Virus record (IMG/VR): IMGVR_UViG_3300021961_000037
Span: 50,095-114,094 of that record
Reading direction: 5' to 3' (one strand)
DNA from: a virus
DNA length: 64,000 nt
Shown piece by piece: positions 4,769-64,000 of the stretch. The position numbers and the translations under genes are program-made. Below the pieces are notes generated by a model. The model worked only from the letters and a program-made list of their open reading frames with translations. It was not told the DNA's origin and did not search any database. Each line of letters starts with the position of its first letter. Positions within the stretch are counted from its first letter, which is position 1.

Positions 4769-7700
4769 ATGGCACGAGAGCGCGTAGTTATCAATATCGA
4801 GGTCAACTCGGATATTGCGACGATTGAGGCTACCCGTGCGGCTTTGGAGCGTCTTACTAAACAAAACCGTGACCTTAACGACGAGTATGACCGTCATAAG
4901 AAACGCATCACGGAAGTAACTAAAGAGAACAAGCGCCTTAACCGTGATAGTGACATGGTTGGCAATTCGTTGCGCAATCTTGGTAAGCATACGGCGACAT
5001 CCAGTAGGCGGTTTGCCGGTTTGCGTAAGTCTGTTTTGAGTTTGCGTAAGGATATTGGAACACTAATTAGCGCTTTTGGTGGAATGATTGGGGTTGTAAA
5101 CAAACTTTCTTTGATTGAGATTCCTCTTCTCGCTCTCGGCATGGCTGGCATAACGTCCTTGTTTAAGAGTGGTACAGGGTTTGTGAACCTTTATAGAGCG
5201 GCGATGAGTTCGCTTGCGTACACCGCTGCTGGCGTCGGTGTTGCTGTCACCACGGTTATATCTGCATTGCGTGAGTTCCAGTCAGTTCAATTTGCGCCAA
5301 TGTACGTGGATGGTGCGATAAATACCGAGGATCGTTTTGCTGCTGCGTCTGGGGCGATGCGAATGTTTGTTGATAATACGAGACTTGCTGTTGTTGGGTC
5401 CGAGTCGCTTCAGAAGGCTTTCGGTACTTTGAGTAAACAGAAGCCAGTGACTGGTGGAACTGTTGCTGCGTTTGAGGGCTTGATGAATATTGTCGCCGGT
5501 AGCGGTGGGGATATTGGGAAGGGAAGCGAGAAACTTGCAACATTTTTGGCGCAGGTTCAAAAGGGTGGACTCGGGAGTGCCGCTTCAGCAGCCAAAGACC
5601 TTGGTCCTGACTTTGAGAAAATCATTAAAGAAGCGCAAGCGCTTGGTTTAAAGACATCTGACGAGTTTTTTAAGGCGGCTGCTGACGGTGCTCTTGGTGA
5701 GACTTTTCAGAAGAAATATGCGGGCCAGTTGGATGCTCTTAACGACACCCTGATTGGTCGTTTTAAGACTGCTTTACAGAGCACAAAAAATCTTTTGGGC
5801 GATATTGGTGACCAGTTTCTGCAGCCTACTGGTGAAGCGGTAATCAAGATTCAGAGGATTATTGAGCGGACGATACTGCAACTTACTCCCATGTTGCGTC
5901 AGTTCGGAACCGACACATTTTTGGGTGATGTCGTTAATCTGATTGACAAGGTATCTGTCAAGTTTGTTGGTTTGATGAATAAATATCTTGGTACCACTCC
6001 AGGTTTGTTTGAAAAACTTGGCGAATACATGGATGCGATTGGTAAAAGGTTTGAGAAGGTTCAGGATTGGGCTCGACAGTTTGTTGATGCTGGTCAGTTA
6101 ATTACAGACAATTTTATTAAACCGATTTTTGAAGGTTTGATGGACAAGTTTGGTGGAGGAATGAATGTTCTCGCTAGTTTGGTTGAGGCTAATGCGCCGT
6201 TGCTGAGGTCTCTCGCTGACAGCATTGTTGATGTTATTGCTGCAATTGGTGAGTACGGGAACATGCTTAAAGAGGCGTTTATTGCGGTCATTCCGCTTCT
6301 CAATGTTTTCTTGAAGGTCACTGAAAAGATTTTTTCTATTTGGACGAAAATAAGTAAAGGTTTGTTGAGTGTTTTCGGTGGTATCGGTGGTGGTATCGGT
6401 AAGGCTCTTGCTGCTGTTCCTGTTCTATATGGCTCACTTATTCTTTTCAGTCGTTTTTTCAAAGTTTTTGGCGGAATGTTCGGGAAAGATATGAGCATTA
6501 AGGCGAACAATGTTTTCGTCAACGGTAGAGGTATTGGTGGTGGGCCGATGGGTGGACCTATGGGTGGCCCAGGCGGAAGGCCTATGGGTGGACCTGGGAT
6601 ACGAGGTCGAATGGGGTACTCATACAACCTTGCACGTAACAGTGGTGTGGGGATAGCGAGGTCTGCTCAGGCGGGTTTGCGATCTGGTTACGCTGGCGTA
6701 AAAGGTCTTGGTGGTTCTGGGGCATTCAACCAGTTGTACGGCTTGGGGAATATGGGTTTGATGCTCGGTGGAACTGCCTTGATGGGTGCTGGTCAAAAAA
6801 TGGGTGGGACATCAACTGCTGGTGGAGCAGCGCTCACTGGTTTGGGTGCGGCAGCAAATCTTGGCGCAGCGGGTTCAATGCTTGGTTTGGGGGAATTGAC
6901 ATTTGGTACTGGAAGTGCAGTCGGTACCGGCGCAATTCTTGGTGGCGCTGCCGCTATCGGCGGAGGTTATGCGGCTGGCTCGTATATTGGTTCTAAATTC
7001 ACAGATGATTCCGTTAGGTCGCGCGCAATGTCAGCAGCGACATCAGCGGCAGTTGGCGCTGCAATCGGAAGTGTTGTTCCTGGAATCGGAACTGCGGTTG
7101 GTGCTGGATTGGGTGCTGTTGTCGGTGGTGCTGTTGGGTATTGGAAGGCTGGCGCGGCGCGTAGAGATGCACGCAAAGCAGCAAAAGGCGTCATGGACAA
7201 CTTTTTCATGGAAACAGAAGACGCATTCGCGGCTGGAGATGTTGAGAAACTGAAGGCCCAACTTGAAGGATTGAACGCCGAAATCGCCAAAGCAGCAACT
7301 GGCGATATTGACTACTACAACAAAAAGATTGACGAGCAACGCAAAAAGATTGACGAAACAGCAAAACAGATTGATAACTATTCAAGGAACGCTGATCTTG
7401 CTGAAAGAATGTTTGGGAAGAGCACCGATGCGTTGAACAAACTAGCCGAAGAAGCCGGCATCAATGTGCGCGACAAGGTTCTTAATTTCACTGAAATGCT
7501 GAAACTTGTTGGGAAAACTTCCGAGGAGCAGACTCGACTGGTTAAGCAATTTTGGGGAACTCTCGGCGGTCAGGCTCTTGGTGGTGCGCTCGGAAAACTT
7601 GACAAAATCAGGGAGCGTCGAGATACACAAAACGCTCTGGATGCTTCACAGGCGTCGCTTTTGGGTGGAAATGTTTCTGGCGAGAATCTTCTTTCTTTCG

Positions 7701-8248
7701 TTGAAAATCAAATCAAGTTCTCTACGGCGGAGTACGGAGAATTGGGTGGTTTGGCTAATGCCTATGAATCAATCATTGCTGGTTTGTCTGGTGAAACCTT
7801 GGGCAAACTTGATGATAAAACAAAAGAAAAGTTGATGGCGCTTGCCAACGACATACTTGACCCAACAGCGTTGGTCAAATCAATGGATCAGGAAATGCTT
7901 GCGACAATGGTCGGCGGTGCGAGTGCGCTTGCTGGTATGTCTTCGTCAGACATACTTTCTTTGGTTAATCAAAAGATGAAGACAGATCCGAACTTCCTTG
8001 CGAATTTCGGCGCATATCAAAGTCGAAATAACATGACTCAAATGAATGCAATGATTACTGGTCAGGGTGGCATTGTTGGCGCTTCGTCTCCGTATGGTTT
8101 TATGCCTCAGATTACGGTGAATGTCAATGCTCCGGTAATTGACCCAGAAGTTGTTCGTCAGATTCGCCTAGAACTTGAAGCATCGTTGCGCACGGCAAGG
8201 GAAAAGGGTGGCACCTTCACTGGTGGTGCAGGGACGTTTAGGCGTTAA
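4769..8248 (+). CDS. Tape measure protein
   Basis: 1159 aa, helical and Ala/Gly-rich with hydrophobic segments; follows the chaperones. Confidence 0.9.
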   Translation: MARERVVINIEVNSDIATIEATRAALERLTKQNRDLNDEYDRHKKRITEVTKENKRLNRDSDMVGNSLRNLGKHTATSSRRFAGLRKSVLSLRKDIGTLISAFGGMIGVVNKLSLIEIPLLALGMAGITSLFKSGTGFVNLYRAAMSSLAYTAAGVGVAVTTVISALREFQSVQFAPMYVDGAINTEDRFAAASGAMRMFVDNTRLAVVGSESLQKAFGTLSKQKPVTGGTVAAFEGLMNIVAGSGGDIGKGSEKLATFLAQVQKGGLGSAASAAKDLGPDFEKIIKEAQALGLKTSDEFFKAAADGALGETFQKKYAGQLDALNDTLIGRFKTALQSTKNLLGDIGDQFLQPTGEAVIKIQRIIERTILQLTPMLRQFGTDTFLGDVVNLIDKVSVKFVGLMNKYLGTTPGLFEKLGEYMDAIGKRFEKVQDWARQFVDAGQLITDNFIKPIFEGLMDKFGGGMNVLASLVEANAPLLRSLADSIVDVIAAIGEYGNMLKEAFIAVIPLLNVFLKVTEKIFSIWTKISKGLLSVFGGIGGGIGKALAAVPVLYGSLILFSRFFKVFGGMFGKDMSIKANNVFVNGRGIGGGPMGGPMGGPGGRPMGGPGIRGRMGYSYNLARNSGVGIARSAQAGLRSGYAGVKGLGGSGAFNQLYGLGNMGLMLGGTALMGAGQKMGGTSTAGGAALTGLGAAANLGAAGSMLGLGELTFGTGSAVGTGAILGGAAAIGGGYAAGSYIGSKFTDDSVRSRAMSAATSAAVGAAIGSVVPGIGTAVGAGLGAVVGGAVGYWKAGAARRDARKAAKGVMDNFFMETEDAFAAGDVEKLKAQLEGLNAEIAKAATGDIDYYNKKIDEQRKKIDETAKQIDNYSRNADLAERMFGKSTDALNKLAEEAGINVRDKVLNFTEMLKLVGKTSEEQTRLVKQFWGTLGGQALGGALGKLDKIRERRDTQNALDASQASLLGGNVSGENLLSFVENQIKFSTAEYGELGGLANAYESIIAGLSGETLGKLDDKTKEKLMALANDILDPTALVKSMDQEMLATMVGGASALAGMSSSDILSLVNQKMKTDPNFLANFGAYQSRNNMTQMNAMITGQGGIVGASSPYGFMPQITVNVNAPVIDPEVVRQIRLELEASLRTAREKGGTFTGGAGTFRR

Positions 8249-23864: not shown

Positions 23865-24200
23865 ATGGCGATTTCAAGAACAGAAACAAGACTGGGCGGT
23901 CCTACTTCGCTCGGTACCTCTACGACCGCAATTTGTTCTGCCAGTGCAGGCGTAACGGAGGTCATCAAGCAGTTGCTCATCTGCAATACGGATACTGTTG
24001 AGCGCACTTTTAGTCTCGCCATCGGTACTGCGGCGACGGCTACGAACCGTTTCTTTTCCGCCATGCCGATTGGCGCGAATGACACGATTGTTTTGGATAC
24101 TGCGATAGTTCTTGCTCCAACGGAAACACTTGAGGGTTTGGCTGATACGGCAAGCAAGGTCGTTGTTACTGCTCTTGGCTGGGAAAAGACGACTACCTGA
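23865..24200 (+). CDS. Fibre-tip adaptor (type 2)
   Basis: 'TETRLGGPT'; close paralogue of 27876. Confidence 0.65.
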   Translation: MAISRTETRLGGPTSLGTSTTAICSASAGVTEVIKQLLICNTDTVERTFSLAIGTAATATNRFFSAMPIGANDTIVLDTAIVLAPTETLEGLADTASKVVVTALGWEKTTT

Positions 24201-25231
24201 TGGCTCTTTCTGCTGGTCTCGGCGCAGGCGGTAATCGACCTGGTGTTTGCACTAGCAGTACTCGCCCTGCTTCGCCCTATCTCGGGCAGACAATTTTTGA
24301 GACTGACACCAACAAAATGAAAGTTTGGTTAGGTTCAAATTGGTCATCTGGTACTGCACATACCACACCATTCGCAGTTGAATACCTTGTGGTTGCTGGC
24401 GGTGCTGGCGGTGGCTACACCCATGGTGGTGGTGGCGGTGCTGGCGGTTATAGGTCGTCGGTTTCTGGTGAGTCATCTGGTGGAGGTGGTTCAGCAGAAA
24501 CAACATTGGCTTTAGATTTGGGAACATACACCGTCACCGTAGGTGCTGGCGGAGCGGCTGGAACAACCTCCAATGCGACTGGTGTAAATGGTTCTAATTC
24601 GGTTTTTTCCTCTATTACTTCTACTGGTGGTGGTTACGGAAACAGTTACAACAACAGCCCTGCAAATGGAAACTCTGGTGGTTCTGGCGGTGGCGGTGCT
24701 GGTGCCAATACCGCTGGCAACGGTGGTGCAGGAACGTCAAGCCAGGGCTATGCAGGTGGTAACGCAAGTTCTAATGGTACGGCAGGTAACGGCGGCGGTG
24801 GTGGTGGTGCTGGTGCTGTTGGTGCTAATGCTACTGGTGCTATAGGGACGGGTTCTGCTGGTAATGGTGGTGATGGTGTGAGTTCTTCCATCAACGGTAC
24901 GGCTACCACTCGTGCTGGTGGTGGTGGTGGTGGTAGATGGAGTTCAGGAACTTTTGGTTCTGGTGGTTCTGGCGGTGGCGGGCGTGGAGGGTATCCATCG
25001 AATGTTGCAACTGCTGGAACGGCAAATACGGGTAGCGGTGGCGGTGGCGGTGGTGACGGCGATACGCCTGTCGGCGGTGCGGGTGGTTCTGGAATCGTTA
25101 TTATTCGCTATTTGACTGCCGATGCAAGCGGCTACACAGTCACAGGCGGAACAAAAGTGGTTGGTCCAACTGGAGCAACCTCTTACACCGTTCACACATT
25201 CACATCTAGTGGAAGTTTGGTGATTGCATGA
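24200..25231 (+). CDS. Glycine-rich putative adhesin with PGVCTSSTRP N-terminal module
   Basis: Gly-rich architecture; N-terminal motif shared with 25228, 26105 and 30969. Confidence 0.7.
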   Translation: MALSAGLGAGGNRPGVCTSSTRPASPYLGQTIFETDTNKMKVWLGSNWSSGTAHTTPFAVEYLVVAGGAGGGYTHGGGGGAGGYRSSVSGESSGGGGSAETTLALDLGTYTVTVGAGGAAGTTSNATGVNGSNSVFSSITSTGGGYGNSYNNSPANGNSGGSGGGGAGANTAGNGGAGTSSQGYAGGNASSNGTAGNGGGGGGAGAVGANATGAIGTGSAGNGGDGVSSSINGTATTRAGGGGGGRWSSGTFGSGGSGGGGRGGYPSNVATAGTANTGSGGGGGGDGDTPVGGAGGSGIVIIRYLTADASGYTVTGGTKVVGPTGATSYTVHTFTSSGSLVIA

Positions 25232-27875: not shown

Positions 27876-28214
27876 ATGGCAGTTGGCGACAGGACAGAGA
27901 CACGGCTTGGCGGACCCACACAGTTGGGTACGTCGACCACGACGGTTTGCACGGCTGCGTCAGGTTACGCAGAAATAATCAAGCAAATCATCATCACGAA
28001 CACTGACACGGTGGACCGCACGTTCAGTCTTGCCATTGGCTCGGCTGCAACGGCGGCAAACAGAATCATTTCTCAGTTGCCCATTGGCGCCAACGACATA
28101 ATGGTCTTGGACACTGCTTTGGTGTTGAATGCCACGGAAACCCTTGAGGGTCTTGCTGATGCTGCGAGCGTCGTGAATGTCACGGCGATTGGCTGGGAAA
28201 AGCAGGTTTCGTAA
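27876..28214 (+). CDS. Fibre-tip adaptor (type 2)
   Basis: Close paralogue of 23865. Confidence 0.65.
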   Translation: MAVGDRTETRLGGPTQLGTSTTTVCTAASGYAEIIKQIIITNTDTVDRTFSLAIGSAATAANRIISQLPIGANDIMVLDTALVLNATETLEGLADAASVVNVTAIGWEKQVS

Positions 28215-28217
28215 ACC

Positions 28218-29168
28218 ATGGGCGTTTCCACACCGTATGGCATTCAAGGGCTGAAGAACTATGTAAGGGTCACCACGCCTACGAGCATTGAATATCTGCT
28301 TGTTGGCGGTGGTGGAGCAAGTAGTGCTTCAAATGGTGGTGGCGGAGGTGGTGGCGGTGTTCTGTCTGGAACTACATCTGTTACTGGCGGTTCTGAATAC
28401 ACAATAACTGTTGGTGGTGGCGGGTCTGGTGCTGGTTCAACTGGAGTAAATAATGTCAAAGGCAATAACGGGTCAGACACGGTCGCTTTTTCTTTGACTG
28501 CTGGTGGCGGTGGTGCAGGCAACAGCCTAAACAACAGCGCTGGTGGTTCAAATGGACGAGCAAGCAATGGTTCTGGTGGCGGTGGGTCGGTGACAAACGC
28601 CGGTATAACGGCTGCTCATAATGCTGGTTCTGGAAACGGAACAGGGAAAAACGGAGGCGCTGGGCTTGGCGACATTGCTTCGGGTGGCGGAGGCGGTGCT
28701 GGTGCTGCTGGAACTGCCGGAACATCAACAAATGGCGGTACGGGTGGAAACGGTGTTCAAAATTCAATAAATGGAACAAACTTGTATTGGGCTGGCGGCG
28801 GCGGTGGAACAAGTAATGGAACTGCGGGGAATGGCGGTCTTGGTGGTGGAGGTGGCGGAGCAACCAATACTGGAACACCTGGTCAAGGCGGTGGGTCGGC
28901 ACTTAACTCTGGCGGCAATGGTGGTACTGGTACTGGGAATGATGGCGGAAATGGCGGCGACAATACTGGTGGCGGTGGTGGCGGTTCTGGTTGTCAACAG
29001 AATCAAGTAGCATCGGCAGTCGGTGCAAACGGTGGCTCTGGTGTAGTCATTATTAAATATCCAGATATTTACAGCGCTGCAACCTCTACGACTGGTTCTG
29101 TATCGCTGAGCACGGTAAACGGATACAAAATATATACATTCACCACTAGCGGAAGCATCACCTTCTAA
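28218..29168 (+). CDS. Glycine-rich putative adhesin
   Basis: 'IEYLLVGGGG...GGSGVVIIKYP...YTFTTSG'. Confidence 0.7.
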   Translation: MGVSTPYGIQGLKNYVRVTTPTSIEYLLVGGGGASSASNGGGGGGGGVLSGTTSVTGGSEYTITVGGGGSGAGSTGVNNVKGNNGSDTVAFSLTAGGGGAGNSLNNSAGGSNGRASNGSGGGGSVTNAGITAAHNAGSGNGTGKNGGAGLGDIASGGGGGAGAAGTAGTSTNGGTGGNGVQNSINGTNLYWAGGGGGTSNGTAGNGGLGGGGGGATNTGTPGQGGGSALNSGGNGGTGTGNDGGNGGDNTGGGGGGSGCQQNQVASAVGANGGSGVVIIKYPDIYSAATSTTGSVSLSTVNGYKIYTFTTSGSITF

Positions 29169-30940
29169 TGAGTATCTCAGGCGCACGTAAACCAAGACTC
29201 GCTACAGAGTACGGTATTGCATCTGGCGGTACTGAATCAGATATAACCGTTTCAGGTGTCTCATACAAACTTCATACATTTGCGGCAACAGGTACGCTTT
29301 CGGTTACTCAACCCGGTTGGTTTGATGTGCTTACCATCGCTGGTGGCGGTGGAGGCGGTGGAAGCAATGGGAGCGACTTCCATGGCGGAGGCGGTGGCGG
29401 TGGCGGAGCCCAACTAACGACAATGTACCTATCCTCCAACGCAACAGTGACGGTCGGTGCTGGAGGAAATGGTGGTGCAATAGGTGGAGGAACAAAACCC
29501 TCAGATGGAACATCATCATCTGTCGGCGGTGCTGTTCTTTCAAATGGAGTTGCTGCTGCTGGTGGTGGTGCTGGCGCTGACGGTTGGGGTAACAAGAATT
29601 CCAATGGTGGTTCAGGTGGCGGTGGAGGAATGGAGGCATCAAGTACAAAAGGTTTTGGTATCCCAACACAAGGTAATGATGGTGGTGCAGGATTTAATAG
29701 CAGGGGTCCAGGAAACGGCGCTGGCGGTGGTGGTGGTGCGGGTGGAGTCGGTGGAGCCGGCACTTCGTCTGCTGGTGGCGCTGGTGGCGATGGCGTTGAC
29801 ATATCTTCGTGGCTTGGAAGTGGAGCCCCTTCGTCTCCGTACTACATGGCGGCTGGGGGAGGTGGAGCAAGATACAGCGGAAGTAGCGGTGCTGGCGGTT
29901 CCTCTATTGGCGGCAATGGTGGCTCCAATACGACAGGAAGCGCAGCGACTGCAAGCAGGGCTTCTGGTGGCGGTGGTGCTTCTGGTGCTGGATACAACTC
30001 TGGAGGAAACGGTTCTGGAGGAATCGTCTATATCCGTAGAAGAGTCTCTGGATCTGCTGTAGGAACGCTGACGTATCTCCCGGTTTTGAATAATGTCGAG
30101 TATTTGATTATCGGTGGCGGTGGCGGTGGGGGAGGACGTCATGGTGGTGGCGGTGGTGCTGGTGGTTACCGTTCATCGGTGAGCGGAGAATCCTCTGGCG
30201 GTGGCGCATCCGCCGAAGACAAATTATTATTTACTGCTGGAAGCACATACTCAATCACTGTTGGCGCTGGCGGTCCAGGTGGTACTGCAAACAATAACGG
30301 AACGCTCCCAAGAGCAACATCGGGTAGCAATAGTTCTGCTTTTGGTATTACATCAACTGGTGGCGGCGCGGGTGGAAACGGGAATGTTGCTGGTGAAGCA
30401 AATGGAATTGCTGGCGGTTCTGGTGGTGGCAGTGTTCCTTCTGGTACTGGTGGCGCTGGTACTGCAAATCAGGGGTATGCCGGAGGAAATGGCGGCAGTA
30501 CTTATCTTGGTGGCGGTGGAGGTGGTGCATCTGCTGCTGGTTCAAATTACTCTGGTTCGACTGCAGGCAATGGTGGCAATGGACTTGCGTCAAGCATCAC
30601 TGGCTCCTCCATAACCCGTGCTGGAGGTGGCGGAGGTGGTGGATGGACTGGCAACACTGCTGGAACTGGCGGTTCCGGTGGAGGCGGTGCTGGTGTCGCC
30701 AACTCTGGAACAAAAGCAACAAGTGGCACTGCCAACACTGGTAGCGGTGGCGGAGGTGGAGGCACTGACTCTGCCCCAAATGCTGGTGGTGGTGACGGTG
30801 GTGCAGGTGTCGTCATCGTTCGTTACCCGACAGCAAACGCCACTGGTCTATCGGTAACTGGCGGAACTATTACAACATCGGGCAGTTACACCATTCATAC
30901 ATTCAACGCAACTGGAACCTTCACGGTGGCACGGGCATGA
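29168..30940 (+). CDS. Glycine-rich putative adhesin with two tandem Gly-rich domains
   Basis: Two complete units ('DVLTIAGGG..GGIVYIR' and 'VEYLIIGGG..GVVIVRY'). Confidence 0.7.
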   Translation: MSISGARKPRLATEYGIASGGTESDITVSGVSYKLHTFAATGTLSVTQPGWFDVLTIAGGGGGGGSNGSDFHGGGGGGGGAQLTTMYLSSNATVTVGAGGNGGAIGGGTKPSDGTSSSVGGAVLSNGVAAAGGGAGADGWGNKNSNGGSGGGGGMEASSTKGFGIPTQGNDGGAGFNSRGPGNGAGGGGGAGGVGGAGTSSAGGAGGDGVDISSWLGSGAPSSPYYMAAGGGGARYSGSSGAGGSSIGGNGGSNTTGSAATASRASGGGGASGAGYNSGGNGSGGIVYIRRRVSGSAVGTLTYLPVLNNVEYLIIGGGGGGGGRHGGGGGAGGYRSSVSGESSGGGASAEDKLLFTAGSTYSITVGAGGPGGTANNNGTLPRATSGSNSSAFGITSTGGGAGGNGNVAGEANGIAGGSGGGSVPSGTGGAGTANQGYAGGNGGSTYLGGGGGGASAAGSNYSGSTAGNGGNGLASSITGSSITRAGGGGGGGWTGNTAGTGGSGGGGAGVANSGTKATSGTANTGSGGGGGGTDSAPNAGGGDGGAGVVIVRYPTANATGLSVTGGTITTSGSYTIHTFNATGTFTVARA

Positions 30941-30968
30941 AATCGTTTATCATTGAGGTGAGGTAATC

Positions 30969-31628
30969 ATGCCGTTTTCTTCAGTTTTAGGTGCATCTTC
31001 GGTCATCAAGCCTGGTGTCTGCACGTCCTCAACCCGCCCAACGGTTCCCTATGAGGGGCAGTTGATTTATGAGACGGATACAGACAGGGTTGCTTCTTGG
31101 AACGGCTCTGCTTGGGTATATACGGCGACTGGAGGGCTAATCACAGTAAAGGGGGAGACGGCATTCTCCAATGTCGCAAATGTGACCGCTGACGGCGTAT
31201 TCACTAGCGCATACACGAACTACCGAATGATTATTCGTTTTCAGATAAGTGTTGGGCAACTCTCGTTTCAGTTACGTGCCGCAACGGTTGACGCAACAAC
31301 GAATTATTCAACGCAAAGCATAGTCGCAAACGGTGCAACGCTATCAGGAGCACGTACAACAAGCACATCAAACGCAAACATCGGAAACAATGGTAACGGA
31401 GCGTTTTGGGGATTGGCAGTTGTGGAATTGAGCGGTCCACAACTAGCCGAGCCGACGCTTTACCAATCGCAATTTTTGCGACAAGACGGAAACTACACAA
31501 CGGCTACAGTAATTCAAAACTACTACGGTAATCATTCAGATTCAACAAGTTATGACGGCATAAAATTATTGGGTACTAGCGCCAACATTACGGGCAGTTA
31601 CACCATCTATGGATACGCAAAGGTCTAA
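30969..31628 (+). CDS. Putative receptor-binding / minor tail protein
   Basis: Paralogue of 25228 with the PGVCTSSTRP module. Confidence 0.6.
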   Translation: MPFSSVLGASSVIKPGVCTSSTRPTVPYEGQLIYETDTDRVASWNGSAWVYTATGGLITVKGETAFSNVANVTADGVFTSAYTNYRMIIRFQISVGQLSFQLRAATVDATTNYSTQSIVANGATLSGARTTSTSNANIGNNGNGAFWGLAVVELSGPQLAEPTLYQSQFLRQDGNYTTATVIQNYYGNHSDSTSYDGIKLLGTSANITGSYTIYGYAKV

Positions 31629-49645: not shown

Positions 49646-52600
49646 ATGCGTTCCGGGCGCTTATTGTATATAAATCTCATATTTTTGAGTGCGCTTGCTT
49701 TGGTGCTTATGTTCCTGCCTGTCTCTGCAAGTGCTTCGGATGGCAACAAACTCGTCTTTTCGTGGTCGTCGGCAACAGTCTCCCAGCAAGTGAGTGTTCC
49801 GGAAGGCTGGGCGAGCGCGACCTCGGTAACCGCAACGGTTAGTGCCGCTGAAGCACAGGACTGGAAAGAAGCGTCCGACAAACTCATCATTGGAATCTCC
49901 CTGTATGGAGATGGTGGCGGGTTGATGTATAGCCACGACACAGGGCAAATAACACTTACTGATAACGGGTCATACAACGACTACACATTAAGCGTTACCT
50001 CTGAAGGAGTGGGTTCTGGTTGGGCGGATGTTGCATCTGTAAAAATATCAATCACAGGACAAGATGGCGAGTTATGGGCGGGCAACTATGGAACCGCTGT
50101 TGAGTCCGCATCGCTTCAACTGAATGATGGAACCGAACTTCTTAGCAATACTGAATTCACGTCCAATGCTGGCTGGGTGTCTTCTGCTGGATGGCAAACA
50201 TGTTCTGGTGATTCTGGTTCTCTGCCATGCGTGGGCATAAGCGCAGTTGAGATTGCTGCCGCTGCGACAACCACCACAACGACTACCACAACGGTTCCAG
50301 AGGTTGCGTTGTACTACCCATCTGGACCTCAACTCAATATAAGCAAGTCCACTGTCACCGATGGCGGGTGGTCACTTTGCTACTCGGGAACCTACGGTGC
50401 GACTGCCTCGCTAACCACAATTGAGTCCGACTGCGACGGCGAATACCTCATCCTTGCCGGTGGTCAAACCGGCTCAGACACCCTGATGCTTCTTGCTGCT
50501 GCCCCAAGGTCGGATGTGTTCACAAATACGACAACAGCCCACCTATCCAACGGGTCGTACTGGTACTACGGACGCGACCACAGTTCGTCAATCGGCTTTG
50601 CCCCAAATGCCACGATTCAGTTGAGCAGTGCAGACGTCTATAACACCTCTGACCAATACCGACTCTCCTGGCATACCAACTACTGCGGAAACCTGATGCT
50701 CTGTGGAGGCTGGCGTGTCGGTGCTGTCGTCGGTCTCAACTCAGGAGATTCATACACACGGTATGTGTATGAGTCTTCAGATGGTGCTTCGCCTACGACG
50801 ACTACAACTACTACAACTACTACGACAACTACAACTGTTCCAGCACCGACTTCCATTGAGGTGACCAACCTCTTGGATGACGGGTCAGAGGGAAGTCTTC
50901 GCTGGGCGATTACCCAAGCGAATGGAGCATCTGGTGGAGCCAATGACTCCATCACCTTCGCAGAGGGTCTTACTGGAACCATAACGCTCACATCAAACTT
51001 GCCAAATATCACCGACACCCTGACTATTGATTCCGACGATGCAATAACAATTGCTGGCAACTATCAGATGTACATATCAACCGGAGTGACCGCAACGGTT
51101 AACGACATGGGCTTTAGCCAGTCGTACATAACCAACGAGCGTGGAACCCTGTATGTGAACAGTTGCACCTTTACAAACCTTGGCAACTATGGGGTGGGCA
51201 ATAAGAATGGTGCGACCCTCACCTACATAGATGGAACCACATTTAATGGTGGAACACGAGGAGTCTGGTCAGACTGGGGAAATACGCCAAATCCGTTCAC
51301 CACGGACGACTCTGCATACCAGAACCGAATCTACGTAACAGACTCAACGTTCCAAAATCTGTCAGTTGGAATAGGAACCGAGCGTTCAGTATTTGTTTCT
51401 GGGTCGACATTTACGAATAACTCCACCCACATCAATGCAAGAGGAATAAACAAATACAGGATCACCAACAACACATTTAGCGGTGGAACTAACGGAATAA
51501 TCACGTTCTCCAACATCCCAGCGTGGGAAGGATTCTTTGCCAATAAATCAGTGGATGCAAACAATAGATACATCTCTGGGAATACGTTCACCAATGTTTC
51601 CAACTATGCAATTTATTTGGACGACTACTACGGCAGTGTTCCGGACCAGCAGGGTGCAACGATTAGGGACAACACATGGGACGAGACTGGTGTGTGGGTC
51701 AGTTGGAGGAATGCCAACGGAAGGTACAACGAAACAGAGGTTGACGGTGGAGAGTATCCGTATTATTCGTTGAGCAACACTTCCAGTGCTCCGCCGCCGA
51801 CTACCACGACAACCACAACCACTACAACTACAACAACAACTACAACAACTACTGTCGCTCCCGCTGCGCAGGAAGCGCCTCCCCCGACAACAATTGCTCC
51901 TCAGCCAGTAAGTCCTGAACCTGGGACGACGACAACGACGACCCTTGCCCCTGAGCCCGAGCCTGAGCCTGAGCCCGAGCCTGTTGAGACGACCATTCCC
52001 GAACAGCCCGATGAAGAGATATCACCTGAAGAAGACCAGCCCACGCCATCCGAAACAGGAACAACATTGCCTACTCTTCCTGAGGATGAGACTGACTTTC
52101 CTGACGAAGAAGAGGTGGATATCCCAGCCGATGAAGAAGAACAACAGCCCCAATCGCCAGAACCCCAACCAGAGGAAACATCAGAAGAAGAAGATTTTCC
52201 ATTTGATGTAAATATACCAAATCCAGAACTTGCCCAAGACCTAGAAGACGCTTTGGTTGATATTGGGGACGCATCAGCCGATGAACTTGATGAAGTCCTG
52301 TCCGACCTTATTGACGAAATACCTGACGACGAACTACTTGAATCCCTAGATGACGTGGTTGAGGCACTTCTAGAGAACGTTCCGGACGACCAGATTGACG
52401 AGGTGCTCGACAGTCTTGTTGAGGCAATCTTTGAGAACGTCCCGGAAGACGAGATTGCAGAAGCCCTAGAAGAAGTCATTGACGTTATTTCCGATGGGGT
52501 GAACGTAGATACCCTGACCGAAGAGCAAAAGCACGAAATTGCCACCGTAGTTGAAGCCATTATCGCCTCTGGCGTAACGGAAGAAGTCGCCGAAACGCTT

Positions 52601-59082: not shown

Positions 59083-59331
59083 CTAAACCTGTTCGCTATC
59101 TGCCATCTCTTCGTATGCGTTAAGCGCAGACACTACCCGTAGTGTCAAGTCATCTTGTTCAAACTCTTCCTTGAACACGGTTGAAACATATAGCGTGTTG
59201 TAGAGAACCGTTGCGACATGCTTCCATGTTTTCTGCTCAGATGTCTTTTCCTGTGATATCACTTCTGGTTGCGGTGATGAGTCGTTCAACTGTTCTGATG
59301 AGTCGTCTGAGGTCGGGGTGATATCTTGCAC
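59083..59331 (-). CDS. Hypothetical protein
   Basis: 82 aa; start uncertain because it overlaps the wHTH gene. Confidence 0.5.
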   Translation of the reverse strand: MQDITPTSDDSSEQLNDSSPQPEVISQEKTSEQKTWKHVATVLYNTLYVSTVFKEEFEQDDLTLRVVSALNAYEEMADSEQV

Positions 59332-59692
59332 TTTTGTAGTTTATCCGATATTCGTACCGTCCGGACACTTTTGTTCTTGTAATCATTCTGTCTTTTCCCA
59401 GTAGGGCTAAGGCTCTTATTACTGCTGTTTCCGAGCATCCCAGTGTTACTGACATCTCACGGACTGTGAGCCCTGGGCGCTCCACAAGCATCACCAGGAG
59501 TCTTCCTGCTGGCGTGAAGAGGTTTACCTTGCTCTTGGCGGCGTAAGTAATCAAGTTCTGCTCGTCAAGTTCCAAAAGTATGGATTCAACTAATTCTTTT
59601 ACATCTGCATTGTTGGCTATTGCCTGAGCAACGACCTTTTCTAATGGTTGCCTAAGCACATGGTCACGTCTGTTGTCGTGTGCTGAGGTCAT
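59237..59692 (-). CDS. Winged helix-turn-helix DNA-binding protein
   Basis: 'PGLTVREMSVTLGCSETAVIRALALL...MITRTKVSGRYEY'. Confidence 0.75.
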   Translation of the reverse strand: MTSAHDNRRDHVLRQPLEKVVAQAIANNADVKELVESILLELDEQNLITYAAKSKVNLFTPAGRLLVMLVERPGLTVREMSVTLGCSETAVIRALALLGKDRMITRTKVSGRYEYRINYKSARYHPDLRRLIRTVERLITATRSDITGKDI

Positions 59693-59847
59693 AGTCGTGC
59701 ATCGTATCACTGTGATAGCACGCATGTTTTCCAACAAAAAATCAAAACATCGGATTTATTTACTTTTGTATTTGCAAACACCCAACCGATGCTTGACAAA
59801 ACAATGCACATCATAGAAATATGTCATCATGGATACAAGGAGAAATC

Positions 59848-60141
59848 ATGACTAGTCAAGAGCAACCAAGAAAAGCCTTGCTTGGAAAACTCACGGAACT
59901 CACCGAAACAAGTGTGGATGCACCATGTCGAATCGGCGAAATCCACAAACAACTTGACCCGGAAACAGCACAAGCATTACTGAACGCTTTGCGCTCGGCG
60001 GCATCAACATCCGCCATCCACAAGGCAATCAAAGACGAAGGGTTACCACTCAGTAGGCACACCCTCAACCAAAAGAGGAAATGTTTCCGCCCACCCACAG
60101 ACGGGGAATGCCTCTGCTTCCCCAATAACACAGGAGCCTAA
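59848..60141 (+). CDS. Hypothetical protein
   Basis: AGGAG RBS; abuts the phosphoesterase. Confidence 0.6.
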   Translation: MTSQEQPRKALLGKLTELTETSVDAPCRIGEIHKQLDPETAQALLNALRSAASTSAIHKAIKDEGLPLSRHTLNQKRKCFRPPTDGECLCFPNNTGA

Positions 60142-61344
60142 ATGTCTCTCCACGACAAACTTACCTCAATGACCCTAGATGCAAACGGCACCCCAGACGG
60201 CGACCGGGCATGGGCACAAGTAGAACTAGACGGAGGAGAGTTATCCACAGGAGCCCTCGCCATCCCCCTCACAGGAGACTGGGACGGCATACTCCGCTCA
60301 TTCGGACTAGACCCCAACGTATTTGAAATCGTAGACGACACCGTCCGGATGTCCAAATGGCAAACATCCAAACGCCTAGAAAACGGAGAAAGAGACCTCA
60401 TCTGGCTCTACTCCTACAGGGCACGCTTCCGCCGCAAAAACATCACCGCACTCCCAGAAGACGAAATAGACAAACTCCGCAAAACTGTACAGAAATGGAA
60501 ACCTTACAAACCCACACTCAAGAACCCTGATAGCAACCCATCAACCTTCGTAATCTGCTGGGCAGACCAACAAATCGGCAAATCAGCAGGAGGCGGCGTA
60601 AAAGCCACAGTAGACCGAATCCTCCAATCCTTCACAGACTGCGAAACCCGCATCAAAGAACTCCGCAAAACTGGGCGGAACATTGAGAAGATTGCCATCG
60701 TCAACATGGGAGACCCAGTAGAAGGCTGCGACGGCAACTACGCCAGCCAATTGTTTACAGTTGAATTAACCCAACGACAACAACTCCTACTAGCACTCGA
60801 CCTATGGGCACAAGGAGTCCGGCACCTCGCCCCACTCGCAGAATCCTCAGAATTCGTCTCCGTACTCTGCAACCACGGCGAATGGATGCGCAGAAACGGC
60901 AAATCCGTCACCTCAGACTCAGACAACGCAGGAGGCTTCCTCACCGACGCCCTACAACGAGTATTGGAAGGACGACCAGAAGTAGAACACCTAGAGTGGC
61001 GAATCCCCCACGACGAGTTCACCACAACAACCGTGCTATCAGGCATCAAAGTCGCATTCACACACGGCCACAAGATCACAGGCAAAGAAATTGAATGGCT
61101 CCGAGGACAATCCATCCGCATCCTCCGAGAAGAAGGACAAGAACCCGACATCTGGGTAACCGCCCACAAACACCACCTCAACGTCCAAGACTTCGGCCCC
61201 TGGTACCGCTTCCAATGCCCATCCAACGACGGCGGCTCCAAATGGTATACGGACATGAGCGGACAATGGTCAACCCCTGGAACCCTCACATTCCTCGTCG
61301 GAAACCACGACCCACGAGGCTGGTCAGATATGGCAGTCCTATGA
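60142..61344 (+). CDS. Calcineurin-like metallophosphoesterase / putative nuclease
   Basis: 'ADQQIG', 'GDPVEG', 'NHG', 'HGH', 'AHKH' metal motifs. Confidence 0.8.
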   Translation: MSLHDKLTSMTLDANGTPDGDRAWAQVELDGGELSTGALAIPLTGDWDGILRSFGLDPNVFEIVDDTVRMSKWQTSKRLENGERDLIWLYSYRARFRRKNITALPEDEIDKLRKTVQKWKPYKPTLKNPDSNPSTFVICWADQQIGKSAGGGVKATVDRILQSFTDCETRIKELRKTGRNIEKIAIVNMGDPVEGCDGNYASQLFTVELTQRQQLLLALDLWAQGVRHLAPLAESSEFVSVLCNHGEWMRRNGKSVTSDSDNAGGFLTDALQRVLEGRPEVEHLEWRIPHDEFTTTTVLSGIKVAFTHGHKITGKEIEWLRGQSIRILREEGQEPDIWVTAHKHHLNVQDFGPWYRFQCPSNDGGSKWYTDMSGQWSTPGTLTFLVGNHDPRGWSDMAVL

Positions 61345-61547
61345 CCCTCACCTGCCCATGCCGATACACCAACATCTGGGGACACCGCCCAGTATGCGAC
61401 ACAGAAGACGACGATGAATAGACGCAACTTCCCCCATAAGCCCAACGATACCGATAGTTGCCGTCAGCGTCAACTCTACGCATCGCAGACACCTTGTGTA
61501 AAGCAACGCCGCATAATTCCTTCCACGATTCAAAAACGGGTATAAGC

Positions 61548-62162
61548 ATGACGACAGTTATCGGAATACAGGGAGACGAATACTGCCTCCTAGTAGCAGA
61601 CACCCGCATCTCCTCCACAACAGAAGACGGCATCCCCACCCAAATCAACACCCTCCGCTCAGACACCTCCAAAATCGCAGTAAACGGCAAATACCTCATC
61701 GCCACAGCAGGAGACCTCAGAGCCATCAACCTCCTCACCCACACACTCCAACTCCCCACCTGCCCACCCACACTAAAAGGCAAAAAACTAGACGAATTCA
61801 CCACCAACAAAATCATCCCCACCATCCGCCACCTCTTCGAAACACACGGCTACACCCACACCCCCACACAAGACAACCTCAAAGCCGGACACGACTCAGA
61901 ACTCCTCCTCGCCGTCAACAACACCCTCTACATCATTGACGGCGACTACGCCTGGTTCACCGACCAAAACAACACATACGCCATAGGCACAGGAGCCCCA
62001 TACGCCCTAGGAGCACTCAACGTACTCCCCCAACCCAAAAACCCCATCCAAGCACGCAAAAACGCCCTCAAAGCCATCGCCACCGCAGCCAAATACGACC
62101 CCAACACAGGACACCCATACCACACCCACATCCAACAAAACAGAAAAACTACAACAAAATGA
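61548..62162 (+). CDS. HslV / proteasome-beta-like Ntn threonine protease
   Basis: M-T-T-V-I-G N-terminus, 'ADTRIS', 'SKI', 'AGD', 'AIGTGAPYALGAL', 'DPNTG'. Confidence 0.85.
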   Translation: MTTVIGIQGDEYCLLVADTRISSTTEDGIPTQINTLRSDTSKIAVNGKYLIATAGDLRAINLLTHTLQLPTCPPTLKGKKLDEFTTNKIIPTIRHLFETHGYTHTPTQDNLKAGHDSELLLAVNNTLYIIDGDYAWFTDQNNTYAIGTGAPYALGALNVLPQPKNPIQARKNALKAIATAAKYDPNTGHPYHTHIQQNRKTTTK

Positions 62163-62476
62163 ACCACCAAAACCACACCCCACACCCCGATACACAAACA
62201 ACAAACAAATGGCAACAACACGCCAACTGCAAAGGCAAAACCAACCTCATGTTCCCCCAACACCACAAAGACATCACCTACATCATCAAAGCAAGAGAAC
62301 TCTGCTCCACCTGCCCAGTCACAACACAATGCCTCAACTACGCCCTCGAATACCACCCCATAGACATGCACGGCGTATGGGCAGGCATGACCAGCCGACA
62401 ACTCGCAGCAGAACAAAAACGACGAGGCATCAAACCAATACGCCCATCCATATCACAAATGTGGGAACTACTCTAA
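62159..62476 (+). CDS. whiB: WhiB-family Fe-S transcription factor
   Basis: W....C...C..CPV...CL.YAL...GVWAG. Confidence 0.92.
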   Translation: MNHQNHTPHPDTQTTNKWQQHANCKGKTNLMFPQHHKDITYIIKARELCSTCPVTTQCLNYALEYHPIDMHGVWAGMTSRQLAAEQKRRGIKPIRPSISQMWELL

Positions 62477-62533
62477 AACCCAAAAAAGTTCCCGCGTGCG
62501 TGGTTTTTTGTGGTTTGGTGTGGTTTTGTGTTT

Positions 62534-62606
62534 GCCCCTGTAACTCAGTGGTGAGAGTGGCACTCTTATAAGGTGTTGGTCGCAGGTTCGATTCCTGCCG
62601 GGGGCA
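62534..62606 (+). tRNA. trnI: tRNA-Ile(UAU), no encoded CCA
   Basis: GCCCCTG/CGGGGGC acceptor; ACTC/GAGT D stem; GCACT-CTTATAA-GGTGT anticodon arm; GCAGG-TTCGATT-CCTGC T arm; A73. Confidence 0.88.
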
Positions 62607-62609
62607 CGG

Positions 62610-62945
62610 TTAGGTGAGGCGGATTCCGCAGGTGTTGCAGTAGGTGTTTTGGTTTAGTTTTGTGGGGGTTTTGTTGCAGGTGGTTTGTCCGCAGGGTTGG
62701 AGTGTTTTTTCGCCTGTGAGGTAGTCGAGTACGGGTTGGAGTGGGTTGGGTGGGGTGTTGTTTTGGAGTGGGGGTTGGTTGTTGTGGGTGCGGGTTGCGT
62801 TGGTGAGGGTGCGCACCACATATGTTTGTAAACTTTCTTCACAGTTTTGTGCTGTGGTGATGAGTTGGTTTTTGAGCCAGCCTGGGATGGGGATGGTGAG
62901 GTGGACGGTGTGGTCTTCTCGGGCGGGTTTAGGTTTGTGTGGCAT
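62610..62945 (-). CDS. RHH-like DNA-binding protein with C-terminal Cys4 motif
   Basis: 'HLTIPIPGWLKNQL...SLQTYV..L'; C..C...CxxC. Confidence 0.55.
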   Translation of the reverse strand: MPHKPKPAREDHTVHLTIPIPGWLKNQLITTAQNCEESLQTYVVRTLTNATRTHNNQPPLQNNTPPNPLQPVLDYLTGEKTLQPCGQTTCNKTPTKLNQNTYCNTCGIRLT

Positions 62946-63102
62946 CGCGTTCTATGAGGGTGGTTAAGTATTCGGTGATGGACATGTCGTATGCTTCGGC
63001 TTGTTCGATGAGTTGGGTTTTGACGGTTGAGGTGATGCGGAGGGTGAGGGTGGTGTTTCGGGTTGTGGGGGGTTTGGGTGGGCGTCCTGTGCGCTTCTTC
63101 AT
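62929..63102 (-). CDS. Ribbon-helix-helix DNA-binding protein
   Basis: 'MKKRTGRPPK..TLTLRI...K.QL...A....MSITEYL..LI'; real start is inside the longer track ORF. Confidence 0.7.
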   Translation of the reverse strand: MKKRTGRPPKPPTTRNTTLTLRITSTVKTQLIEQAEAYDMSITEYLTTLIERDATQT

Positions 63103-63521
63103 AGGTTTACCGTAGCATTGTAGGTTTCTGTGAAATGTAGTCGATCTGCGTTGGTGTGGAGGTTGAGGCCGACTTGTTGGATGATGGTTTGTAGTTTGGG
63201 GTGGATGCTGGTTGTTTCTATGGTGCCGGCGTTGACGGTGTCTCTGATGTGTGTGTATTGGTTCCAGGCTTGTGCTGCTGTTGGGGGTGCGTCGGGGAGG
63301 CTTCGCAGGTATTCGGCTTTGAGCATTCCTGGGGTGGGGAGGTATTGTTCTCTGGTGGCGAGACGGTCTGCTGCTTGGAGGATTCCGTCTTTGGGTGTGT
63401 CGGCGAGTAGCCGATGCCATGCTCTGTAAACGTTTTTTTGGTTGTCGGGGAGGTTGGGGAGTTCTTTGTTCCACATGGCGTAGATGATTTCTACTGTTTC
63501 GGTGAGTTCTTCTTTGTTCAT
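63099..63521 (-). CDS. Replicative helicase loader/inhibitor (G39P-like)
   Basis: 'M...E....V..I...W...W..LL.D......A.......YLPTP..L'. Confidence 0.6.
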   Translation of the reverse strand: MNKEELTETVEIIYAMWNKELPNLPDNQKNVYRAWHRLLADTPKDGILQAADRLATREQYLPTPGMLKAEYLRSLPDAPPTAAQAWNQYTHIRDTVNAGTIETTSIHPKLQTIIQQVGLNLHTNADRLHFTETYNATVNL

Positions 63522-63557
63522 GTGCCGCTTTCCGCTACCGTCGCCTGTTGGATGGGG

Positions 63558-63941
63558 TTACCAGTTGGGGTCGTTGAGGAATTCTGTGCGGGCGTCCCGC
63601 TGTTCGCTGAGGGTGATGAAGCGTTCTACGTTGTCTGCGTGCCGGAAGATGAGTTCGATGTCGTTATATTTTTTGTTTCTGGGGTTGTGGCCCATGTGCC
63701 AGGGGGAGTTTTTGATGCCGTTGATGGCTTGTTTGCAGGCTTCGATTCCGTAGTCGTGGATTGCCCAACCGATGCGGATGGTGCGTTTGTCGTCTAGGAC
63801 GGCTTTGGAGGTGGGGTTGATGGTTTCTTTCCAGTGGGCGAACACTTGTTCTATGGCGTGTGGTGATACTTTGCGGGCTTTGGCTGCTTGTTGCCGGGTT
63901 TGTATGTGTGTTCGATCGGATTGTTTCACGGTAATCCCCAT
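63558..63941 (-). CDS. Replication initiator C-terminal-domain-like protein
   Basis: 'VFAHW..L.D.R...I..AI.G....PW.MG.N...KYN.IELI.R...VERF'; adjacent to the loader-like gene. Confidence 0.5.
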   Translation of the reverse strand: MGITVKQSDRTHIQTRQQAAKARKVSPHAIEQVFAHWKETINPTSKAVLDDKRTIRIGWAIHDYGIEACKQAINGIKNSPWHMGHNPRNKKYNDIELIFRHADNVERFITLSEQRDARTEFLNDPNW

Positions 63942-64000
63942 GATTGAACTGTAACCGATAGTTTCAGTAAAGTCAAGTGATGTGGGAACGCTGGATATCT

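Follow-up and report, generated by a model that had tools for sequence, protein, structure and literature searches.

The DNA analysed here, the window, is a 64,000-nucleotide stretch of viral sequence covering positions 50,095 to 114,094 of IMG/VR record IMGVR_UViG_3300021961_000037, that is, the final 64 kb of one 114,094-bp contig. Near its right end lies a region, here called island 1, in which the plus strand is rich in A+C up to about 62.49 kb (switch 1) and rich in G+T (the keto bases, as opposed to the amino bases A and C) beyond that point. Its features are as follows; third-position values give the G+T fraction of the plus strand at third codon positions.

59738..59820, no strand: left outer boundary, a divergent gap between the MarR-like gene p166 (minus) and g106 (plus)
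59821..62476, plus strand A+C-rich: left arm, with four plus-strand genes
59821-60141, plus: g106, 106 amino acids, third-position G+T 0.27
60142-61344, plus: exonuclease of the metallophosphoesterase type (phrog_284, 2.6e-49), third-position G+T 0.14
61548-62162, plus: HslV-like peptidase (phrog_1040, 1e-22), third-position G+T 0.03
62159-62476, plus: WhiB (Pfam Whib, 3.7e-15), third-position G+T 0.08
62463-62469 (GGGAACT) and 62487-62493 (AGTTCCC): inverted-repeat arms at switch 1
62477..62533, no strand: switch spacer, with the composition flip at 62,487-62,495
62534..62607, plus: tRNA-Ile, anticodon TAT (ARAGORN; 70.6 bits to the Rfam tRNA model on contig G001)
62610..63941, plus strand G+T-rich: right arm, with four minus-strand genes
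62610-62945, minus: p111, 111 amino acids, third-position G+T 0.93
62929-63105, minus: ribbon-helix-helix (RHH) gene, third-position G+T 0.90
63099-63521, minus: p140, G39P-like helicase loader, third-position G+T 0.89
63558-63941, minus: O-like initiator fragment (phrog_16167, 1.4e-14), third-position G+T 0.87

In 200-nt windows the plus strand is 17–40% G+T across the left arm (~59.85–62.49 kb) and 69–78% across the right arm (62.5 to ~63.95 kb), against a mean of 0.51 (standard deviation 0.05, 300-nt windows) in the remaining genome; windows this extreme make up only 0.2–0.8% of 1.67 Mb of related contigs. The original prediction, made from the letters of the window, had described progressive A+C enrichment followed by a sharp switch. 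Its four base counts are exact (6/60 G/T at 62161-62220, 11/60 at 61801-61860, 33/33 at 62501-62533 and 12/60 A/C at 62761-62820), and third-position G+T falls progressively toward the switch (g106 0.30 and 0.26, exonuclease 0.08–0.20, hslV and whiB 0.00–0.08). The flip itself is about 10 nt wide, and 62,487 is the lowest point of the cumulative keto walk. Directly after AGTTCCC come GCGTGCGTGG and a T6 run (62504-62509), which lies near the start of a pure G/T run of 35 nt (62500-62534). On the right, third-position G+T runs from 1.00 to 0.79, and the arm ends abruptly at ~63,950, as seen in contig G001. Codon positions 1 and 2 have a G+T fraction of 0.32–0.75, compared with 0.03–0.14 or 0.87–0.93 at the third position. 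Non-coding DNA and the tRNA had also been said to follow the skew: the spacers do (G+T 0.36 at 61345-61547 and 0.72 at 62477-62533), while the tRNA-Ile directly right of switch 1 does so only mildly (59% G+T, about three G-U pairs). This tRNA is present in the related contig L003 and absent from L008, L015 and L017. An RNA-family search at both switches described here returned the tRNA only. The inverted repeats noted at the switch are not above chance, as arms of 7–10 nt occur in 17–57% of side-wise shuffles with mirrored composition. Within the window, two operons converge on switch 1 and every island 1 gene has an A+C-rich coding strand, so the window alone cannot separate a strand effect from an effect of gene direction. 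Immediately left of the island (59083-59737), the minus-strand genes p82 and p166 have plus-strand third-position G+T of 0.60–0.78, a mild opposite skew that produces a weak reverse flip at ~59,780 in the divergent gap.

The 114,094-bp record is incomplete (CheckV completeness 78%). A 66.6-kb contig from another metagenome, G001, holds 21.5 kb that lies between the end and the start of the record and is missing from it (L142 2065-20000; L143 1-3620). This piece is compositionally neutral and encodes small genes without assigned function, an AAA ATPase, a membrane protein and an SNF2-type helicase; putting it back gives a composite genome of 135.6 kb. G001 also spans the junction at switch 1 (99.4% identical), as does L002, again from another metagenome, with two differences in 4,048 bp, and an assembly artefact at this junction is thereby excluded. 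Exactly two sharp flips from A+C to G+T, alike in polarity, are present in the composite genome and in each of two near-complete relatives (133 and 138 kb); their spacing is 29.8, 35.3 and 29.9 kb, respectively, and the remaining DNA of each genome is neutral. There is no sharp switch of opposite polarity between the two flips. The flip in the window is thus one of two equivalent flips per genome, which the original prediction had no means of seeing. The early/replication region spans the DNA between and around both islands, with an O-like initiator, the loader-like protein, two WhiB proteins, RuvC, ParB, an HNH nuclease, metallophosphoesterases, an SNF2-type helicase and a primase-helicase among its products.

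The second flip (switch 2, genome position ~6,690) takes G+T from 0.23 to 0.85 and is sharper than switch 1. Its surroundings, island 2, hold genes on both strands within one skew domain, and the gene calls are supported on both strands by PHROG matches. Plus-strand third-position G+T is 0.13 (plus gene) and 0.04 (minus gene) before the flip, and 0.93 (minus), 0.88 (plus), 0.95 (minus), 0.96 (minus), 0.96 (plus), 0.90, 0.85, 0.72, 0.74 and 0.67 in the genes after it; spacers go from 0.20 to 0.91. Switch 2 is common to at least 12 relatives, with a G+T gradient that fades over 3–5 kb toward the primase-helicase; taken over both flips, the skew fades within 1.5–5 kb. At the flip itself lies a conserved, unskewed core of ~65 nt with the layout TAARCGGGRCTG, 25–30 nt, GKGGGCGG, 4 nt, GCGMC, 2–3 nt, TTTTTTGG. 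The core shows no covariation, and its conservation lies in the sequence itself. A motif scan found the core in 42 contigs of the viral collection; the next 300 nt are at least 70% G+T in 37/42, and the upstream side is at most 35% G+T in 33/41. Three viral contigs (L161, L190 and L195) match the core motif without skew on either side, and these may be chance matches or relatives without the process. Left of the core are lineage-specific repeats: a 13-mer, CGACAACAAGCAG, occurs twice in this genome (L001 6632-6657), and L068 (~1691-1780) and L070 (~1615-1700) each carry three copies of a palindromic GAACA..TGTTC. These repeats look like iterons or operators. Promoter and terminator scans were not decisive; they gave a single sigma-70-like promoter, directed leftward and serving p184, together with weak hairpin/T-run signals arranged back to back within the core. 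Comparison of the proteins flanking the two islands revealed no paralogy.

The relatives separate the skew from the genes. A search with the exonuclease brought together 58 related loci, in which exo, hslV, whiB, p111, RHH, p140 and O-like keep their order and orientation, and the original prediction's call to look for the same switch in relatives is answered by flips of the same polarity. In coding sense, third-position G+T of p111 is 0.07 in the window, 0.05 in L003 and 0.08 in L017, but 0.99, 0.96 and 0.95 in the opposite type (L008, L010 and L015). In these last three the flip lies ~400 bp further along, within the intact RHH gene; in L008, RHH codons 1–30 end in A/C and codons 31–61 in G/T. 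Exonuclease orthologs span 0.07–0.74 in third-position G+T, with 0.65 in a relative of 91% amino-acid identity, and at 151 codons whose amino acid is invariant in 15 orthologs the third base is G/T in 13% here versus 74% in L022. Many relatives lack island 1 at the same genes. The skew is therefore a property of the DNA strand measured from a fixed point, not from the genes, and the islands recur at the same two map positions in relatives. Because of the mixed gene directions of island 2, the orthologs of opposite composition and the in-gene flip of the L008 type, codon usage, transcription direction and inversion of an imported block are excluded as causes; the agreement between skew and gene direction is apparent in the window alone and disappears once island 2 and the relatives are considered, as the claim that the skew is more than codon choice had held.

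The skew is saturated at silent sites and spills over into amino-acid composition: P+T+H+Q+N+K make up 57% of p111 in one skew type and 12% in the other, and p111 identity between opposite types is 38–40%, compared with ~50–76% for neighbouring genes. The flip of the skew has driven this fast divergence and could hide homology in searches, and such protein distortion matters for phylogeny as well as for homology searches. The p111 orthologs (L008 12476-12889; window 62610-62945) share PGWLKNQL and a C-terminal CxxC...CxxC.

How the skew is kept up was examined in 141 alignments of near-identical contigs (at least 94% identity), with mismatches binned by local skew. Strongly skewed DNA has fewer mismatches than neutral DNA (13.5 versus 26.4 per kb) and fewer transitions (6.9 versus 18.9 per kb; 176 observed and 482 expected, 0.37 times the flanks). 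G/T differences on the keto-rich strand are 4.3 per kb compared with 2.6 in neutral DNA, a rate that is about normal per keto base. By calculation, raised C>T and A>G mutation would give a transition divergence of ~1.0–1.8 times the flanks. Young variants, taken as polarised singletons in clusters of three or more sequences, show forward per-base rates that are not raised (~0.5 times neutral), and they erode the purity of the strands: 62 lead away from it and 25 toward it (p=9e-5), and at inferred third positions (92.5% keto) the counts are 18 and 4 (p=0.004). The per-base toward/away ratio at third positions is 2.7, and equilibrium at this composition needs 12.3. Older changes are balanced, with 7 toward and 6 away when L008 and L010 are compared and polarised by L015. 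Since mutation asymmetry is at most ordinary and young variants erode purity, something later must restore it; a fixation bias of B ~2.6 reproduces, by calculation, both the purity and the reduced transition density (0.37 times). These data speak strongly against hypermutation and, with moderate weight, for a filter that acts after mutation. Changes that cross the two classes (G/T to A/C or the reverse) are filtered, and G<->T on the keto strand (A<->C on its partner) is not. As a separate observation, young G<->T transversions on the keto-rich strand run at ~2 times the neutral per-base rate across all related loci, and guanine oxidation is a possible cause.

Kilobase stretches of working genes that are nearly two-letter on each strand go far beyond the skews described for bacterial or phage replication or transcription. 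We found no phage precedent in the literature, and the only published counterpart is GRINS (2021, PNAS; PMC8256042), whose mechanism is not known. To qualify as GRINS, a region must be longer than 500 bp and average above 0.15 in both absolute GC skew and absolute TA skew (150-nt windows, 30-nt step); both islands exceed these intensities several-fold (island 1, 4.1 kb, |GC| 0.35 and |TA| 0.43; island 2, 0.44 and 0.45; rest of the genome, 0.12 and 0.13). The GC and TA skews are correlated within the islands (Pearson r of 0.95 in island 1 and 0.93 in island 2) and hardly so in the rest of the genome (0.11). Further likenesses are the kilobase scale, the emphasis on third positions, recoding toward Gly/Val/Cys/Trp or Pro/Thr/His/Gln, the presence of both polarities within 1 kb of one strand, a link to Actinobacteria and a mechanism that is unexplained in both; the islands show the same third-position pattern and amino-acid recoding. 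However, GRINS are by definition repeated, with over 80% identity to a further copy within their cluster, and a link has been drawn to gene conversion among paralogous polyketide synthase (PKS) modules (PMC8256042), whereas self-BLAST of both islands against the 135.6-kb composite genome gave no second copy. The phage islands also differ in being anchored to a point, bipolar and two per genome, with a ~10-nt flip, decay with distance and, at one of the two, a conserved 65-nt core. They are best described as single-copy, point-anchored, bipolar regions of intense skew.

At each flip, the G+T-rich strand is the one running 5'->3' away from it. Such a polarity can arise in three ways: from a bidirectional origin, from outward resynthesis once a break has been resected 5'->3', or from recombination-primed synthesis. 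Our leading reading, held tentatively and at a little less than an even chance, is that each flip would be an origin-like site at which DNA synthesis starts outward on both sides, combined with a keto/amino filter that acts after mutation. Under this reading each flip would mark a site of repeated outward synthesis, and the strand running 5'->3' away from it would be driven to G+T by a filter that works in one direction between keto and amino bases; candidates for it are biased mismatch repair, biased gene conversion and selection for strand purity. The filter would have to act after mutation because ordinary asymmetry cannot sustain ~93% purity and hypermutation of the islands is not seen. 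The leading strand in Corynebacterium glutamicum accumulates G and T (A>G 48 versus T>C 13; C>T 67 versus G>A 40; PMC6159521); this bias has the right direction and is too weak by itself.

Switch 1 would then be a replication origin beside initiator and helicase-loader genes. The original prediction had named such genes as neighbours, and this held up: besides the phrog_16167 match of the initiator, the p140 ortholog profile matches SPP1 G39P (PDB 1NO1) at equivalent positions with E=0.0025. The similarity to G39P is remote, and we regard p140 as probably helicase-loader-like; the O-like initiator profile gave no meaningful match against solved structures. The available account of phage SPP1 describes oriL and oriR, the G38P initiator and G39P loader, and two initiator-bound sites, of which the second is a place of fork stalling and recombination-dependent restart (PMC3485210). 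The two-site arrangement here may be likened to oriL/oriR: each genome has two special sites, and the gene for the initiator stands beside one for a G39P-like loader. The part of that account considered here describes no compositional skew for SPP1 (PMC3485210), and the protein similarity is the remote one given above. Like bacterial origins, the flips show a switch from A+C (lagging-type) to G+T (leading-type) irrespective of gene direction, with initiator and loader genes nearby. In bacteria, however, skews are weak and extend over whole replichores, whereas here silent sites reach 93–100% purity over kilobases only, and two switches of the same polarity occur with no sharp opposite switch between them. 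The original prediction had offered an origin or joined genome termini; the polarity is indeed that of a bidirectional origin, while termini joined as an assembly artefact are contradicted by L002 and G001.

Several points weigh against an origin at the flips. The skew is local: it neither extends along the replichores nor reverses at a terminus. Switch 1 lies where genes converge, a layout unfavourable for origin opening; no conserved cis element was found at this switch across relatives, and its position differs by ~400 bp between lineages. The counts in the key class of young variants are small (4 versus 18), and a set of metagenomic consensus contigs does not amount to a sample of a population. 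The same polarity also results from a double-strand break at a fixed place that is resected 5'->3' and resynthesised. The neighbouring initiator and loader genes and the SPP1 precedent favour the origin-like reading. Two further candidates were rejected. Divergent transcription with R-loops at switch 1 does not apply, as all mRNAs converge on the flip, and a double-strand break that damages the surviving 3' single strand gives the opposite polarity.

What sets the keto/amino axis could be a presumed host NucS/EndoMS, although we think this doubtful. NucS/EndoMS is blind to A/C, A/A and C/C mismatches. The actinobacterial enzyme cuts only G/T, G/G and T/T mismatches and is inactive on mismatches leading to A:T<->C:G transversions (PMC6159521). 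This partition matches that between filtered and unfiltered changes, and it suggests NucS as a one-sided filter wherever one strand is always the new or the invading one. Acting on heteroduplex and replication errors, such a filter would drive biased conversion toward two-letter strands and would leave G<->T neutral. If so, the specificity of a repair enzyme would be tied to genome composition, GRINS in Streptomyces would be explained, with these phages as a natural point-anchored model, and a NucS filter at synthesis starts would provide a sequence-only marker of replication or recombination starts in uncultured phages.

The main rival to an origin is a recurrent break site, which we rate as unlikely. 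The flips would be fixed sites of DNA breakage or fork stalling, such as an oriR-like roadblock, the boundary of a long terminal repeat or the target of a site-specific nuclease. The ends would be resected 5'->3', the strand with its 5' end at the break resynthesised outward and the heteroduplex corrected, with the spread of resection lengths producing the decay over kilobases. The polarity equals that of an origin if the resynthesised strand gains G+T, and the decay length of 0.5–5 kb suits resection or conversion tracts. Among the phage's own products are an exonuclease, a RuvC-like resolvase and an HNH nuclease; gene conversion has been associated with GRINS; SPP1, in the account cited above, restarts replication by recombination at its second initiator-bound site; and one ~30-kb segment is bounded by the two flips in all three genomes. 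On the other hand, neither flip lies anywhere near the terminase genes, 30 kb would be an unusually great length for a terminal repeat, and the contig ends of relatives show no pile-up at the flips.

It is improbable that strand purity is maintained by natural selection around a functional site. A strand of A and C alone is unable to pair with itself, and the benefit could lie in unfoldable single strands, in a G+T-rich template for the phage primase-helicase, which is encoded downstream of switch 2, or in palindrome-free DNA. Neutral G<->T changes, depleted changes away from purity and young variants that erode the skew are what weak selection per site would produce, with the B ~2.6 given above reproducing both purity and transition density. 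Biased repair or conversion leaves an identical signature, though, and selection would come at a visible cost, namely the heavily recoded proteins, p111 above all; island 1 is moreover missing at the same genes in many relatives. We know of no function that needs 1.5–5 kb of two-letter DNA.

The mechanism in the original prediction, that strands whose 5' ends lie at the switch remain single-stranded over long periods and deaminate (C>T and A>G) as the mitochondrial heavy strand does, has little chance of being right. The composition resembles that of vertebrate mitochondrial DNA (AC-rich L and GT-rich H strands; PMC1794132), likewise with a third-position bias, an effect on amino acids and a gradient over the genome; the polarity agrees as well. 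Polarised per-base rates of C>T (0.027) and A>G (0.028) exceed those of the reverse changes (0.006 and 0.003), in line with the 2.7-fold toward/away ratio at third positions. However, that ratio falls short of the 12.3 needed, the forward per-base rates are not raised, and transition divergence, predicted at ~1.0–1.8 times the flanks, is 0.37 times (depleted 2.7-fold). Equilibrium needs equal counts of young variants toward and away from purity, not 4 and 18, and the commonest change, the G<->T transversion, is not a deamination product. A CDA-type deaminase gene was not found in four records. Mitochondrial skew is ascribed to single-strand deamination and comes with fast evolution, whereas the islands diverge at half the neutral rate and their recent variants lack the mutational excess that would be needed.

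Very improbable, and largely refuted by the ortholog comparison, is the idea that the islands are mosaic blocks from a wholly skewed donor and the flips inversion or recombination junctions. Phage genomes are mosaic, and island 1 has abrupt outer boundaries that coincide with operon starts. Yet gene order and orientation are unchanged in relatives of opposite skew, L008, L010 and L015 have the flip inside a single intact gene, the skew of island 2 decays smoothly over gene boundaries in at least 12 relatives, and 1.67 Mb of related contigs contain no wholly skewed donor. A codon-usage or transcription-linked bias following gene direction, suggested by the A+C-rich coding strands and convergent operons of the window, and an assembly chimera are already refuted by the mixed gene directions in single skew domains of island 2 and the L008-type relatives, by the spacers that track the skew and by the independent contigs spanning the junction (L002 and G001).

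With codon choice, gene direction and block inversion ruled out and simple deamination hypermutation not supported, the evidence points to a directional filter between G/T and A/C. An origin-like, point-anchored process is supported, and its mechanism is unproven. The cause is testable, as there is a definable anchor point, a decay with distance, a conserved core at one site and variation among close relatives with the same genes.

As for the host, WhiB and primase-helicase matches would place this uncultured phage with Actinobacteria. A search of cultured phages gave no close DNA relatives; the nearest cultured phage primase-helicases are only ~34% identical, and Arthrobacter phage Tank, among the nearest by this protein, is without a skew island. 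A family-A polymerase was absent from the four records, other polymerase families not having been searched. The phage encodes an HslV/proteasome-like peptidase (window 61548-62162) and two WhiB-family regulators, one by each island (window 62159-62476; L001 10144-10503). Milder G+T-rich patches of the plus strand occur at window positions 4769-8248, 24000-25000 and 28000-31000, with third-position G+T of 0.65 in a gene of 1159 amino acids and 0.67–0.74 in the genes at 29.5–30.7 kb.

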